Source of the DNA: Flavobacteriales bacterium
GTDB lineage: Bacteria; Bacteroidota; Bacteroidia; UBA10329
NCBI GenBank assembly: GCA_044356305.1
Contig: JBIKWM010000001.1
Span: 259,509-323,508, forward strand
Length of the DNA: 64,000 nt
Direction of reading: 5' to 3'
Part shown: piece after piece, positions 49,392 to 56,044 of the stretch
How positions within the stretch are numbered: position 1 is the stretch's first letter
Layout of the letters: each line of letters begins with the position of its first letter
Notes under the pieces: generated by a model
Told to the model about the DNA's origin: nothing
Databases searched by the model: none
The model's input: only the letters and a program-made list of their open reading frames with translations
Made by a program: the position numbers and the translations under genes

Positions 49392-49489
49392 GATTGACGA
49401 TTGCTGATTGCGGATTGCGGATTGACGAGGGATGATAGCTGATTGCTCGTTGACGATTGCGGATTGACGATTGCTGATGGATGATTGAG
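49392..49489. repeat. heptanucleotide tandem array, 14 units, consensus GATTGCN
   Basis: Units stay in exact 7-nt phase from 49392: gattgac gattgct gattgcg gattgcg gattgac gagggat gatagct gattgct cgttgac gattgcg gattgac gattgct gatggat gattgag. Confidence 0.9.
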
Positions 49490-49535: not shown

Positions 49536-49564
49536 CCATACCCCGCAAGTGCGGGGATGAACAG
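49536..49564 (+). repeat. solitary type I-E-like CRISPR repeat
   Basis: CCATACCCCGCAAGTGCGGGGATGAACAG. The stem CCCCGC/GCGGGG and the 3' ATGAAC-G tail match recalled I-E repeats (E. coli GAGTTCCCCGCGCCAGCGGGGATAAACCG, and the P. aeruginosa I-E ending ...GGGGATGAACCG). No second copy occurs at CRISPR spacing. Confidence 0.5.
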
Positions 49565-49748
49565 CGGAAGCCGAAAAGCTGGGAGAGAGTAGGCGGGGAA
49601 TAAATTCAACTATTTCATGAAACTCTCAAGATTGCTTCATTCACAAGGCTATGATCTCATTGACGGTCCGGTTCGGGGCCATAAGCTATAGGCAGTCTGG
49701 CGAAAAAAGGAGACTGATGAGATTGAATACTTTGAGCACCTGACCAAA

Positions 49749-50318
49749 ATGTTCAACTCGGTTGCAAGTGCACCAGTGAGCGATAAGTCTATTGCCCTTG
49801 ATGTGAACGCCTCAAGTGTCGAGGAGTACGGTTTTGAGGTTGGAGTGACTGTGCTGGAAGGCCTGCTGAGCAGCCTGAACCTTGGAGAGCTTGGCATTAA
49901 AGCGAAGATTGGCTCGTTCAAATCTATGAGCACCAGCTATTCGAAAGCTACGGTGGATGAAGTGCCGGCAGCACGCAGTATTCAATATCTCATGCAAGCT
50001 GATCTGGCGGCATATCCACCAGCAATCCGAACTCAGCTCAACAATGACCGCTTCATCCTGATATCGGGTATTATGTATGGTGAGGGTCTTAAGGTCTCCA
50101 TTGAAACAAAGGTGGACATTAGTGCAGAGGTGATTGTTGAGCTCAATCAAATTGCTGAAGGGAAATTGAATTTCACCATGAGCACTGCAAGGAGCCTAAC
50201 CATGAATGCTGAACCTGACCAGATTGTCCCGATTGCGGTCAAGGCCCACCGCATGTTATTCAATCGAAATGAACTCAGAGACTTAAGGTTAGTCACTGAT
50301 AACAGAAATTTCTTTTAA
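49749..50318 (+). CDS. gasdermin-like (bGSDM-like) protein; frame extends upstream to ATG 49617 through an in-frame TAG at 49689
   Basis: The 189-aa ORF plus its in-frame upstream 24 codons (MKLSRLLHSQGYDLIDGPVRGHKL-TAG-AVWRKKETDEIEYFEHLTK) gives 233 codons. The N-terminal GYDLIxxP motif and the beta-rich pattern (DRFILISGIMYGEGLKVSIE; IVPIAVKAHRMLF) resemble bacterial gasdermins as I recall them. This gene is AT-richer than the patatin gene. Confidence 0.5.
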   Translation: MFNSVASAPVSDKSIALDVNASSVEEYGFEVGVTVLEGLLSSLNLGELGIKAKIGSFKSMSTSYSKATVDEVPAARSIQYLMQADLAAYPPAIRTQLNNDRFILISGIMYGEGLKVSIETKVDISAEVIVELNQIAEGKLNFTMSTARSLTMNAEPDQIVPIAVKAHRMLFNRNELRDLRLVTDNRNFF

Positions 50319-50333
50319 TCAGCTGACCCCCCC

Positions 50334-51335
50334 ATGCCCAAGATCAGAATCCTTTCCATTGACGGTGGCGGCATACGCGGCATCATACCCGGCACCATAC
50401 TGGCCGAGGTGGAGGCACGCATTCAGGCCAAGATGGGCAAGGATGCCCGTCTGGCCGACCATGTGGACCTGGTGGCGGGCACGAGCACAGGGGGCATCAT
50501 AACGTGTGGCATGTTGCTGCCGGGGGCCCAAGGCAGGGCCCGCTACAGCATGCAGGAGGTGGTGAACCTGTATCACGAACGGGGCGCGGACATCTTCAAC
50601 CGGTCGGCCATGCACAAGCTGCGCACGCTGGGCGGCATTGCCGATGAGAAGTACCAGGCCGATGGGCTGGAGCGGGCGCTGGAGGACAAGTTCGGTGACA
50701 TCCGCCTGAACGAGCTGCTGCGGCCCTGCATCATAACGGCCTACGACATTGAGAGGCGCGAAACGGTGTTCTTCGGGCAGCACAAGGCCGCCACCGACCC
50801 TGCCCGCAACTATCTGGTGCGCAGGGTGGCAAGGGCCACCTCGGCCGCGCCCACCTATTTTGAGGCGGCCCTCACGGCCTCTATCACCGGGGCTGCGCGG
50901 CCACTGATAGACGGTGGTGTGTTTGCCAACAACCCCGCCATGTGCGCCTATGCCGAGGCACGGTCGCTGGCAGCGTTGGGCCACCCCACCTCAAAGGACA
51001 TGTTCATGCTGAGCATCGGCACGGGCAGTGTGAAGAAGAGCTACCCTTATAAGGAGGCCAAGGACTACGGCCAGCTGGAGTGGGTGAAGCCGGTGATTGA
51101 CATCATGATGAGCGGCAACAGCGAGACGGTGCACTACCAGCTCACCAAGCTGTTCGGGGCACAGGGCAACGATGACGGATATGTGCGCATGGAGCCTGCC
51201 CTGCTGCCCAAGGCCACATCGGACATGGACGATGTGAGCCCCAAGAACCTCCGCGACCTGAAAAAGGCCGCCCGCAACTACATCGATGCCAACTCCGCGC
51301 TGATAGACCGCGTGGTGAATGAACTGACCAATTGA
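50334..51335 (+). CDS. patatin-like phospholipase
   Basis: Oxyanion DGGGIRG, nucleophile GTSTGG (GxSxG) and catalytic Asp DGGVFANNP. It starts 15 nt after the gasdermin-like stop, and a C7 tract abuts the ATG. Confidence 0.9.
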   Translation: MPKIRILSIDGGGIRGIIPGTILAEVEARIQAKMGKDARLADHVDLVAGTSTGGIITCGMLLPGAQGRARYSMQEVVNLYHERGADIFNRSAMHKLRTLGGIADEKYQADGLERALEDKFGDIRLNELLRPCIITAYDIERRETVFFGQHKAATDPARNYLVRRVARATSAAPTYFEAALTASITGAARPLIDGGVFANNPAMCAYAEARSLAALGHPTSKDMFMLSIGTGSVKKSYPYKEAKDYGQLEWVKPVIDIMMSGNSETVHYQLTKLFGAQGNDDGYVRMEPALLPKATSDMDDVSPKNLRDLKKAARNYIDANSALIDRVVNELTN

Positions 51336-51338
51336 CCC

Positions 51339-51387
51339 CCATTCCTAATTCTTAATTCCCAATTCTTAATTCCTAATTTTTAATTCT
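51339..51387. repeat. heptanucleotide tandem array, 7 units, consensus TAATTCY
   Basis: ccattcc taattct taattcc caattct taattcc taatttt taattct, beginning 4 nt after the patatin stop. Confidence 0.85.
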
Positions 51388-51637: not shown

Positions 51638-51820
51638 ATGCTCTCACCCTTTGGCATACTGTTGTGCATGTTCGCGCTCCTGCTGCCGCAGGTGGCCATG
51701 TGCCAGACGGTAGCCAAGAAGGGCTCTATTCACTTGTCAGGCTCCGCTGCGGGTATTTACCTCCTCAGAGCGGTCATGGGTAATGGCCATACCCAAACCT
51801 TCAAGTTCGCCAAGCCATGA
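51638..51820 (+). CDS. small ORF resembling the last strands of a T9SS C-terminal sorting domain (possible gene remnant)
   Basis: The GSIHLSGSAAGIYLLRAVMGNGHTQTFKFAK tail looks like the end of a T9SS CTD. Its stop overlaps the next ATG (ATGA). Confidence 0.35.
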   Translation: MLSPFGILLCMFALLLPQVAMCQTVAKKGSIHLSGSAAGIYLLRAVMGNGHTQTFKFAKP

Positions 51821-52332
51821 ATCATTTACCCCATTTGCTGTTCCTAGCGTCCGTCTTAGTTGGAATGGCATCATGTGAGCCCGACCCTATAATTCCTGAG
51901 CCTACGCCTAAGGTATGGGAGAAATTTATAGGGACTTACAACGTAACTAAAATGGATAATGGTGAAACATATTATATGAGCATCACACATCTGGGAATGG
52001 ACACCTTAGACAATGGCGCTATAATTGATTCATTATTAATAATGAACTATGGTGATTTGTTTGAAGAAGTGATTTATTTTAGTTCAAACGGAGGATATTC
52101 GGATAATAGGATAATAAAATTTCCTACTAATTGGCCTACCATTGATAAGTTCGGGTATCGATGGGCCTTCTGGGTAAATTCTCAGGACACCCTCACACCA
52201 GAGTTGGAGAATACGCTCGTCAACGACACCCTTTTACTTTATTTCACTTTGAACAACATCGCTTTCTACTTCGAGGATGGAGTACCTTATTATGAGTGTC
52301 AATGCAAGCATTTAGCAGTGAAAGTGCAATGA
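51817..52332 (+). CDS. hypothetical lipoprotein (paralog A), AT-rich
   Basis: Lipobox GMASC. It shares QDTLTPE.ENTLVNDT..NIAFYFEDGVPYY.C.CKH.AVKVQ with the next gene. Confidence 0.7.
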   Translation: MNHLPHLLFLASVLVGMASCEPDPIIPEPTPKVWEKFIGTYNVTKMDNGETYYMSITHLGMDTLDNGAIIDSLLIMNYGDLFEEVIYFSSNGGYSDNRIIKFPTNWPTIDKFGYRWAFWVNSQDTLTPELENTLVNDTLLLYFTLNNIAFYFEDGVPYYECQCKHLAVKVQ

Positions 52333-52408: not shown

Positions 52409-52918
52409 ATGAAACGATCTAACCACATTTATATCATTGGGTTCCTGTCGCTATTTACTGCCTGCGAACCAGACGTGCCTGAGCCAACTCCCATCATCCC
52501 GGAATGGAAGAGATTTGAAGGGGTGTATAATGTTACCAAGCTGGAGAATGGTGACACGTACCAATTAGAAATAAGTTTTGACTCATTGATATCTGAACTT
52601 AGTGGAGAAAGGAAACTTCATATTATTTATAGTAATTTGGATAATTCATTTGACACACTTTCAGCAGTATACTACCCAAACACTGACACCAACAGGATTC
52701 GGTCATTTAATGCCGATTTTCCTGAGTTCGATAATAGTGGGCATCGATGGTCAATATTTGAAATAGGGCAGGACACACTGACCCCTGAACCAGAAAACAC
52801 CTTGGTGAACGACACCATTCTGTTCTACTTCCGGAAAAGCAACATCGCTTTTTACTTTGAAGATGGTGTGCCTTACTACGACTGCTATTGTAAGCACAGG
52901 GCGGTGAAGGTGCAGTGA
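52409..52918 (+). CDS. hypothetical lipoprotein (paralog B), AT-rich
   Basis: Lipobox LFTAC. It is a tandem paralog of 51817..52332. Confidence 0.7.
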   Translation: MKRSNHIYIIGFLSLFTACEPDVPEPTPIIPEWKRFEGVYNVTKLENGDTYQLEISFDSLISELSGERKLHIIYSNLDNSFDTLSAVYYPNTDTNRIRSFNADFPEFDNSGHRWSIFEIGQDTLTPEPENTLVNDTILFYFRKSNIAFYFEDGVPYYDCYCKHRAVKVQ

Positions 52919-54316: not shown

Positions 54317-54452
54317 ATCTTTGACCATCTTTGGAAACACAGACCATTATAGGCGCTAGGGCTTTCTCTTCTTTTAGTGCTGTTGCGAACAGCGAGAAAC
54401 TACTCCCGAACAAGTGGTCCTTCGGAACACTTGCTCGGGCGGGGGGGGTAAC

Positions 54453-55781
54453 ATGGTCATGACTGAATCGGAGCATATAATTCAACAATTCATCAGTCGA
54501 GAATTCCCCTCATTGGCAAAGCGCTACTATGATGAATTTGCCGTAGAGTCAACATATTTATATAAACCTTTAGGAACTGTTATTCAAAACGGTATCAGAT
54601 ACAGTACGTTTGAATTTATAGAACAGTTGGTAAGACTTGAATTCGGCATTCCCTTTGAATTATCTAAATACTTTGATTTTCATGCGCAAGCAATTTTTCG
54701 ATCGCAGCCTATTGACTTCGGATTCACAGCTGTCAACCAATATCCAACTTCCTTTCAAAATCAACAAACACTCGAAGCTCCCTTCAATCTGATCAACTTC
54801 CACCTCTTTGGAGGCCATCCATTTGAAGGTTTATCTGGTCTTTCTTCAAACATCATCAAAGAAAAAGTTAAACAAGACCAAGATTTATACTTCGAGTATA
54901 TTCGACTTCAACTCAAATCACATCTAAAGCGATTTTTTCTATATGGCAGAGTGGAATGGAGATGGGTCATCTTGGACCAATTGGTCCATCACGGAATAGA
55001 TAGGTTTCCAGACTGCCTAAATGGTGAGTTCGATTCTCTAAAATACAGTATGGATTTCTTCTTCCGTTGCGGAAATCTCGGCATCCATAATTCGGGTGTT
55101 CCATACAAGGAAACAGATTGCTACAAATTGGAACTTGAGTTCTATGATAAACTAAAAAGAAAACCTGTTTCAGAGTACACATACACTGATGTCCTAAAAC
55201 AGTACAATCTTAAATGGCAAATATCAAAGTCCCGATCCTCATTAGACAATTCAGGTGTATCGGCCAAATGCGAGGCCTTAGGTGAAGTTCTTCTTGTAGA
55301 TGCCAAGTCGATTCCAACGTGGAACATTTCACCAAGATTTAGCATTGACCTAACCGATGTATTTTACGACCACTCAAGAATTCAGGAAATTTTAGCGACA
55401 TACAACGAACCAGAGAATGCATTGCGACAAATGTTCAATCTTCCCAAAATTGGGGAGGGCTGGATTTCCGAAACCAATTTATACTATCAAATCAAGGAAC
55501 ATTTTAACTCAGAAGTAATCATACAACATGGTAAACCCAATTGGTTGGGTAAACAGCATTTAGATATATGGTTCCCGAAACGCAACATAGGCATTGAATA
55601 TCAGGGCGACCAACATTATTACCCTGTTGCATTTTTCGGTGGCGAAGCCTCTCTTGAAAAGAACAAGGCGCGCGACCAAAGAAAAAAGGAGCTTTGTAAA
55701 GAATTTGGCTGTAGACTAATCTACGTTCTCCCTGATTATGACCTCAATATAGTCATAGGTCAAATCGAGAAATTAATTTGA
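54453..55781 (+). CDS. hypothetical protein, AT-rich, with C-terminal Vsr/DUF559-like (PD-(D/E)xK-type) nuclease-like domain
   Basis: The C-terminus is GKQHLDIWFPKRNIGIEYQGDQHY...KARDQRKKELCKEFGCRLIYV. This pattern (D ... E.xG..H ... D..R...L...G) recalls DUF559/Vsr-type endonuclease domains. I did not recognise the N-terminal ~330 aa. A G8 tract lies 4 nt upstream of ATG 54453. Confidence 0.55.
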   Translation: MVMTESEHIIQQFISREFPSLAKRYYDEFAVESTYLYKPLGTVIQNGIRYSTFEFIEQLVRLEFGIPFELSKYFDFHAQAIFRSQPIDFGFTAVNQYPTSFQNQQTLEAPFNLINFHLFGGHPFEGLSGLSSNIIKEKVKQDQDLYFEYIRLQLKSHLKRFFLYGRVEWRWVILDQLVHHGIDRFPDCLNGEFDSLKYSMDFFFRCGNLGIHNSGVPYKETDCYKLELEFYDKLKRKPVSEYTYTDVLKQYNLKWQISKSRSSLDNSGVSAKCEALGEVLLVDAKSIPTWNISPRFSIDLTDVFYDHSRIQEILATYNEPENALRQMFNLPKIGEGWISETNLYYQIKEHFNSEVIIQHGKPNWLGKQHLDIWFPKRNIGIEYQGDQHYYPVAFFGGEASLEKNKARDQRKKELCKEFGCRLIYVLPDYDLNIVIGQIEKLI

Positions 55782-55782
55782 T

Positions 55783-55949
55783 ACTCCCCTCTCCCGCTCG
55801 CGTGTTTTGTTCGCTCGCGTCCCGCGAGTGAGGATCACTCTGCCTCCCGCATCCTAATAAACACCCCCCTCCCCCGCTCGCGTGCTTTTTTCGCTCGCGT
55901 CTCGCGAGTGAGGATTACTCTGCCTCCGGCATCCTAATAAACACTCCCC
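55783..55949. repeat. 80-nt tandem repeat, two copies plus a partial third
   Basis: CCGCTCGCGTG recurs at 55794 and 55874. Each unit contains the hairpin TCGCTCGCG-n3-CGCGAGTGA and ends in ATCCTAATAAACA. Confidence 0.85.
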
Positions 55950-56044
55950 TTAACCCCCTCAATTGATCATTGCTCATTGTAAAATGCCCCCCCACCCCCT
56001 CTCGCATTCCTCAGTATTCCCCCGTTTCCATTTCCTTTGGGGCA

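Follow-up and report, generated by a model that had tools for sequence, protein, structure and literature searches.

The stretch of DNA analysed here (the window) comprises 64,000 nucleotides of a Flavobacteriales genome. It encodes two marks of the Bacteroidota, namely a T9SS sorting domain and a DUF4833 domain, and the best relatives of one of its housekeeping genes are by title all from Bacteroidota except for two, which bears out the host phylum implied in the first-pass annotation. An island populated mostly by ORFs of unknown function (approximately positions 47.2-56 kb) is bounded in the window by the genes for a glycosyltransferase and an MMPL transporter. Within this island a conserved RNA motif is followed on the forward strand by a gasdermin-like gene that is interrupted by an in-frame amber codon, and then by an intact gene for a patatin-like phospholipase. 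Short tandem repeat arrays flank this cassette on either side (Table 1).

Table 1. Coordinates of the gasdermin-patatin locus in the window, and of further copies of its leader motif in the same genome (G000)
Feature	Position	Strand	Basis
14-bp tandem repeat array (GATTGACGATTGCT-like), 5' of the cassette	49392..49487	.	TRF, 6.9 copies
DUF805b RNA motif (Rfam RF02914), candidate cis-regulatory element	49561..49595	+	cmscan; 21 nt before the gasdermin start
Gasdermin codons 1-24, native start ATG 49617	49617..49688	+	Met1 alignment with the 233-aa family; within the single PADLOC bGSDM match
In-frame amber, codon 25, Leu column of the family	49689..49691	+	Sequence; contigs of 4 runs
Gasdermin codons 26-233 and TAA	49692..50318	+	Translation, alignment; without a second stop or frameshift
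189-aa ORF from Met45, gene-caller product, possible re-initiation product	49749..50318	+	ORF list; P0002 in the protein collection
Patatin-like phospholipase, intact	50334..51335	+	Pfam Patatin 1.7e-23; starts 15 nt past the gasdermin stop
7-bp tandem repeat array (ATTCTTA-like), just past the patatin gene	51341..51387	.	TRF, 6.7 copies
Other DUF805b sites in genome G000	C78:8965-8999, C82:60088-60122, C72:2335-2367	-	Motif search

Translation of the region confirmed the arrangement described in the first-pass annotation, in which a frame opened by an ATG meets a TAG and continues into a 189-aa ORF: the ATG (49617-49619), the TAG (49689-49691) and the closing TAA (50316-50318) all lie in the same frame of the forward strand. 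The ORF listing of the region contains only the 189-aa ORF (49749-50318). With the TAG written as X, the translation reads MKLSRLLHSQGYDLIDGPVRGHKL-X-AVWRKKETDEIEYFEHLTKMFNS... and comprises 233 residues with a single internal stop. The two sides of the stop had been claimed to be parts of one protein, and indeed the PADLOC bGSDM profile matches residues 3-227 of the read-through translation without a break (8.9e-24), ending at model position 229 of 257. The NCBIfam model NF051890 (prok_gasdermin) likewise matches residues 7-207, with the X at the stop (106.1 bits against a cut-off of 100), and a search of the genome contigs with this model returned the same match with "1 TAG" inside it. The local copy of Pfam was silent on this protein, as it was on the intact relatives P0003 and P0018, so family membership was taken from PADLOC and NCBIfam; the precomputed label in the protein collection is PF26164.

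The large protein collection contains 101 non-self relatives of the read-through protein, all of them 231-240 aa in length and 88 of exactly 233 aa. The read-through length is therefore that of the family, as expected if the TAG sits inside the gasdermin-like gene. The named relatives are from Bacteroidota, and the sole short entry is the 189-aa ORF of the window itself. As the relatives align from their first methionine, the family start lies at the ATG at 49617, which makes the TAG the 25th of 233 codons. Apart from the TAG, the 233 codons contain neither a second stop nor a frameshift, and no further decay was found. The read-through protein retains all 19 invariant columns of the family alignment (A1), and ahead of the TAG it agrees with the consensus at 16 of 24 codons, as counted by hand from the alignment. 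At the same time, this is the most divergent member of the family (mean identity 0.375 against a family median of 0.592; best identity in the protein collection 44%). Of 57 conserved columns it departs from 15, and the next members in this ranking, both intact, from 14 and 11. Exact-peptide scans for close relatives in genome and metagenome contigs returned either nothing or only a single locus (L054) at 36%.

An AlphaFold2 model computed from the family alignment (pLDDT 84.5, pTM 0.79) has the solved bacterial gasdermins 7n51, 7n52 and 7n50 as its top structural matches, and thus adopts the fold of the gasdermin N-terminal domain. The Vitiosangium structure 7n51 matches the model with a Foldseek E-value of 6e-13 (TMq 0.74), and in VIA with a Z-score of 17.9 over 226 aligned residues (rmsd 3.4). 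The family profile also matches 7n51 at the sequence level (7.6e-12); here the sequence alignment ends around residue 225 of 266, and the structural alignment spans residues 6..262 of the chain. In bGSDMs a short autoinhibitory peptide at the C-terminus is removed by cleavage; in the window protein, of only 233 aa, any counterpart of it would be putative. The C-terminus of the family is strongly conserved, with the signature LVTDNRNFF. The members of this 233-aa Bacteroidota subfamily, which share a common sequence family and fold with the bGSDMs of Vitiosangium, Runella and Bradyrhizobium, are predicted to be membrane pore formers.

The window gene differs from the described bGSDMs in several respects. 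It is interrupted by a stop codon. Operons that pair a bGSDM gene with a protease gene have been described, whereas the window gasdermin and 49 homologous loci lack a protease neighbour: none of the 143 nearest neighbours in these 49 loci contains a caspase-like, CHAT, trypsin or subtilase domain, and profile searches recovered no activating protease in the island of the window. Clustering of neighbours over 50 homolog loci likewise found no conserved partner gene outside one Flavobacterium lineage, the adjacent genes being mostly of the housekeeping type (ArgRS, RecQ, NusA, GlnA and others). The standalone arrangement prompts the question of what restrains these gasdermins. Further, the available portions of a study of solved bGSDMs report that a palmitoylated cysteine in the N-terminal region is needed for cell death and that the N-terminal α1 "thumb" reorients on activation (10.1101/2023.04.20.537723), whereas the window protein has no cysteine in any of its 233 residues. 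According to the portion available of a 2021 preprint, the bGSDM of Gillisia also lacks the N-terminal cysteine, so this residue is not universal. One family member (L011) was encountered outside the Bacteroidota, its record bearing the title Glaciecola amylolytica (Gammaproteobacteria). The genes around it recur in two Fluviicola loci (L027, L048), suggesting either an inter-phylum transfer or a mislabelled record.

The amber codon itself is genuine. Position 49689 is covered by contigs from four metagenome runs (X1-X4), representing four samples from four studies (2020, 2020, 2023 and 2024), of which X1 is possibly the source sample. These contigs show no differing letter over the site, with the proviso that contigs hide minor alleles. 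In X1 the site lies on a 1988-nt contig at a depth of 11.4, and in X2, X3 and X4 on contigs of 151-167 nt at depths of 2.1-3.4. Many lake-water metagenome runs contain the stretch, none of those listed being an RNA data set. Since four separately assembled runs are letter-identical over the site, and nothing was found in its favour, the sequencing or assembly error that the first-pass annotation had raised as a concern was rejected as the source of the TAG, its chance being negligible. Recovery of the same allele from 2020 to 2024 further implies that it is at least not being purged. A related alternative is that the TAG is a segregating null allele that coexists with an intact copy, and that it was by chance the null that entered the assembled consensus. 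Genes for suicide or defence functions are often polymorphic, contig data drop rare variants, and the depth at the site in X2-X4 is low, all of which would be compatible with such a situation. However, the TAG is present in all four runs with no alternative contig across the site, and the protein collection contains the 189-aa product on three contigs with no near-identical full-length protein, making a hidden intact allele improbable.

We then compared the site with its counterparts in relatives. A pattern scan using one genome per species yielded 50 homologous loci (L004-L053), of which 47 are complete and free of in-frame stops, two are cut by contig ends and one is frameshifted. Apart from the gene in the window, damage was seen only in the last of these (L051, 6001-6631), a Draconibacterium MAG locus with a frameshift or deletion. 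No stop occurs at the aligned site in any of 48 genomic homologs or 101 proteins, and none of the 101 protein clusters shows an early stop or a 5' truncation. G003, a genome from the host's own taxonomic family, carries an intact homolog (41% identity). Among 401 genomes sampled evenly across the phylum, four have an NF051890 gasdermin, and the three besides the present one are free of stops. Among the 101 proteins the residue in the TAG column is Leu in 89 (T in 7, F in 2, and M, N and S in one each), and the codons at this position in the 48 genomic homologs are TTA in 15, TTG in 12, CTN in 15 and others in 6. Given the leucine column and the use of TTG in a quarter of the homologs (12/48), a single T-to-A change from TTG to TAG is the simplest origin of the stop, and the ancestral codon at position 25 was most simply TTG, to judge from this comparison. 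A family HMM built without the window protein scores the translation at 229.9 bits with Leu at this position, 227.9 with X and 227.7 with Gln, and aligns without gaps throughout. An alternative gapped placement of the TAG on the nearly invariant Gln26 was accordingly rejected, as the HMM alignment stays ungapped and Gln falls 2.2 bits below Leu.

The host reads TAG as a stop. Its genome, which is 97.3% complete, encodes RF1 (prfA; 471.3 bits against a cut-off of 423.25), none of its 45 tRNAs has a stop anticodon (CUA, UUA or UCA), and TAG terminates 301 of the 2132 stop-to-stop frames of at least 300 codons. On the strength of RF1, the tRNA set and this stop usage we rejected an altered code, a suppressor tRNA, Pyl machinery and loss of RF1 in the host. 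A rough genome scan for stops at which a frame with coding-like GC3 runs on in the same phase on both sides recovered 45 such continuations for TGA, 18 for TAG and 8 for TAA. When at least 100 open codons were required on both sides, 40, 6 and 4 were left, respectively. The 6 TAG and 40 TGA cases each amount to about 2% of the long-frame stops of the respective codon, and TAG shows no excess among the long-sided continuations. The 121 nt from the stop onwards also show no significant stimulatory RNA fold (z -1.04; 33 of 200 shuffles do as well).

The gasdermin gene is foreign in composition (GC 0.463, GC3 0.504) when compared with the patatin gene next to it (GC3 0.823) and with two of the window's housekeeping genes (GC3 0.768 and 0.856). 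By eye, the low-GC stretch starts just past the DUF805b motif and ends at the gasdermin stop. There is no synteny either with the G004 genome, which holds a relative of the patatin, or with G003, which holds a relative of the gasdermin; in each case only the one gene aligns. With its foreign GC3 and lack of synteny, the gasdermin gene looks like a recent horizontal import that has yet to reach host composition. Phages or a donor that uses TAG as a sense codon were also considered as a source and rejected, as no relative was found in IMG/VR (searched with family patterns), among the INPHARED phages or among the PLSDB plasmids.

Taken together, these observations favour the simplest of the options put forward in the first-pass annotation: the TAG is real, the host stops at it and the relatives are intact, and the gene is probably a nonsense pseudogene of recent origin, derived from a protease-less gasdermin gene that was acquired horizontally. 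Under this interpretation, the gasdermin gene would have arrived by horizontal transfer between the DUF805b leader motif of the host and a host-like patatin gene, after which a single base change (most simply TTG to TAG) would have turned codon 25 into a stop. With termination by RF1 and no suppressor tRNA, translation would release a 24-residue peptide and the cell would lack a functional gasdermin. The lesion may have been neutral, or may have been favoured because it silenced a costly and potentially self-lethal import; an imported pore former that lacks a restraining partner is a plausible target for inactivation. Two features go against decay, namely the otherwise undamaged gene with all its invariant columns kept, and a DUF805b motif that is letter-identical to two other copies in the genome. 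An undamaged frame with an identical leader fits a very recent lesion, and it also fits a gene that is still under selection. The combination of a single stop, an otherwise intact foreign accessory gene and a standard-code host is shared with other nonsense pseudogenes in acquired genes, from which this case stands apart only in that the gene encodes a pore former that could be lethal to its own cell. As found, then, the lesion matters little, as a further instance of an accessory gene put out of action by a point mutation. It does have a practical consequence for annotation, in that gene callers report a 189-aa "gasdermin" that lacks the most conserved segment of the family.

This 189-aa product could alternatively be real, with ribosomes restarting at ATG 49749 to make a protein without residues 1-44, as the first-pass annotation had also considered. 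The ATG at 49749 is the first in-frame ATG, GTG or TTG past the TAG, the frame beyond the TAG is intact, as is the patatin gene that follows, and the methionine at position 45 is specific to this lineage, 46 of 49 aligned genes having an alanine there. This methionine is moreover preceded by an A-rich CCAAAATG context (CCAAA before Met45) resembling the starts of many homologs, and the two features could hint at selected re-initiation. However, with 15 of 57 conserved columns altered in this protein in any case, one new methionine is weak evidence. Nine of the 19 invariant columns, and nine of the 28 nearly invariant ones, fall within residues 1-44, which make up the most conserved fifth of the protein and form a helix (3-9) and two strands (27-30, 36-40) in the AlphaFold2 model. 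The corresponding N-terminal region is functionally important in solved bGSDMs, according to the available part of the study cited above (10.1101/2023.04.20.537723), and no form of the 189-aa type occurs among the 101 relatives. With these 44 residues missing, a working gasdermin is unlikely to result. Variants of this alternative are that the short protein may have taken on a new role, e.g. modulating or partnering the patatin lipase, or that its translation may only shield the operon mRNA and so keep the patatin expressed. We consider the truncated product doubtful.

The most speculative option of the first-pass annotation was that the TAG is a lock kept on a gasdermin that has no protease switch, such that the full-length pore former is made only under TAG suppression. 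The trigger could be, e.g., the suppressor tRNA of a TAG-recoded phage, whereupon the infected cell would die, amounting to a form of abortive infection that senses the genetic code. The phage side of this proposal agrees with the literature: the accessible parts of published reports describe crAss-like and Lak phages of Bacteroidetes that use code 15 (TAG-to-Gln), carry suppressor tRNAs and infect standard-code hosts (10.1101/2021.08.26.457843; PMC9523058). Such phages have hosts in the same phylum and would supply the suppressor that a lock of this kind needs. As the subfamily lacks a protease partner, expression alone might be the trigger. Position 25 tolerates polar residues (the T, N and S variants above), Gln costs only the 2.2 bits noted for the family HMM, and neither the frame nor the leader motif shows any other damage. 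On the other hand, an early stop is absent from all other members of the family, the viral, phage and plasmid collections contain no protein relatives, the sequence past the TAG has no significant RNA structure, and the genome shows neither a suppressor tRNA nor an excess of long-sided TAG continuations. The genomes of the code-15 phages, going by those same parts of the reports, have many in-frame TAGs and come from gut samples, whereas the present case is a lone TAG in a chromosomal gene from a lake-water bacterium. One allele without replication, in a gene only lately imported, has the look of a plain knockout. The amber guard is thus physically possible, and, resting as it does on one allele without comparative support, very unlikely, more so than either the truncated product or the segregating null. 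No published account of a defence gene gated by an amber codon turned up in our literature searches; were it true, the guard would represent a new principle of phage sensing, namely the detection of a changed genetic code.

The RNA motif upstream of the gasdermin gene matches the full DUF805b model (RF02914; positions 1-35 of 35) with 43.4 bits against a gathering threshold of 35.6. The genome contains three identical copies, that of the window included, and one more below threshold, and the other copies precede unrelated genes. To judge from the family name, the DUF805 RNA motifs are called after DUF805 genes. In the window, and in two loci from Bacteroidales MAGs (L006 and L009), motifs of this clan (RF02914 and RF03081; CL00115) precede a gasdermin gene rather than a gene for a DUF805 protein; in the two MAG loci a DUF805 motif (RF03081; 5917-5986) lies directly before the gasdermin, scoring 77.7 and 84.3 bits, respectively. 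The Rfam scan covered 11 loci that had been picked for motif-like sequence in a pattern search, and in none of these besides L006 and L009 did a motif of the DUF805 clan reach the gathering threshold. L016 and L031 have looser matches to the pattern ahead of their gasdermin genes, and G004 has one ahead of its patatin operon (L056, position 227). As a lead rather than a result, a DUF805-clan leader may be a recurring control element of standalone gasdermins. The occurrence of such motifs 5' of three gasdermin genes makes them candidates for control at the RNA level, and would add a new class of genes to those associated with this orphan motif.

The patatin gene downstream is probably co-transcribed with the gasdermin gene. 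Its product matches the PADLOC CBASS-type phospholipase effector over nearly its full length (5.6e-73), scores 193.2 bits against NCBIfam CBASS_lipase, below the cut-off of 200, and has visible GGGxRG and GTSTG motifs; its closest known counterparts are the cGAMP-activated, CapV-type patatin phospholipases of CBASS. A CBASS system around it was considered and rejected, as no match to the SMODS cyclase (PF18144) was found in the genome, at the completeness given above. We also rejected a conserved gasdermin-patatin pair: no patatin relative lies within about 6 kb of the gasdermin in the 50 homolog loci or in L002, and the genomes with patatin relatives (G004, G006 and G014) gave no gasdermin match. 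Going by titles and the opening lines of abstracts, none of the papers listed in a literature search describes a gasdermin-patatin operon. The closest relative of the patatin (64% identity; L056, G004:C35:41849-45853) lies in a different operon, in which a DUF805b-like pattern is followed by an 86-aa ORF, a 289-aa ORF, the patatin gene and a gene for a protein combining PG-binding and glycoside hydrolase 19 domains. The 289-aa ORF was considered as a candidate gasdermin and rejected, not being gasdermin-like (hhalign probability 0.2).

The tandem repeats on either side of the gasdermin-patatin pair coincide with a raised summed contig depth in all four runs, and similar short tandem repeats lie beside another DUF805b copy of the genome (contig C78, near 8964). 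Farther downstream, where the island is low in GC (0.45-0.49 at 52-56 kb), are two adjoining ORFs of 171 and 169 aa (51817-52332 and 52409-52918), paralogues of each other with 45% identity and no family match. These are followed by a 455-aa ORF (54414-55781), whose C-terminal region (approximately residues 331-447) matches PHROGs of phage HNH and homing endonucleases. An 80-bp tandem repeat (55786-55950; 2.1 copies with 91% matches) comes directly after this ORF.
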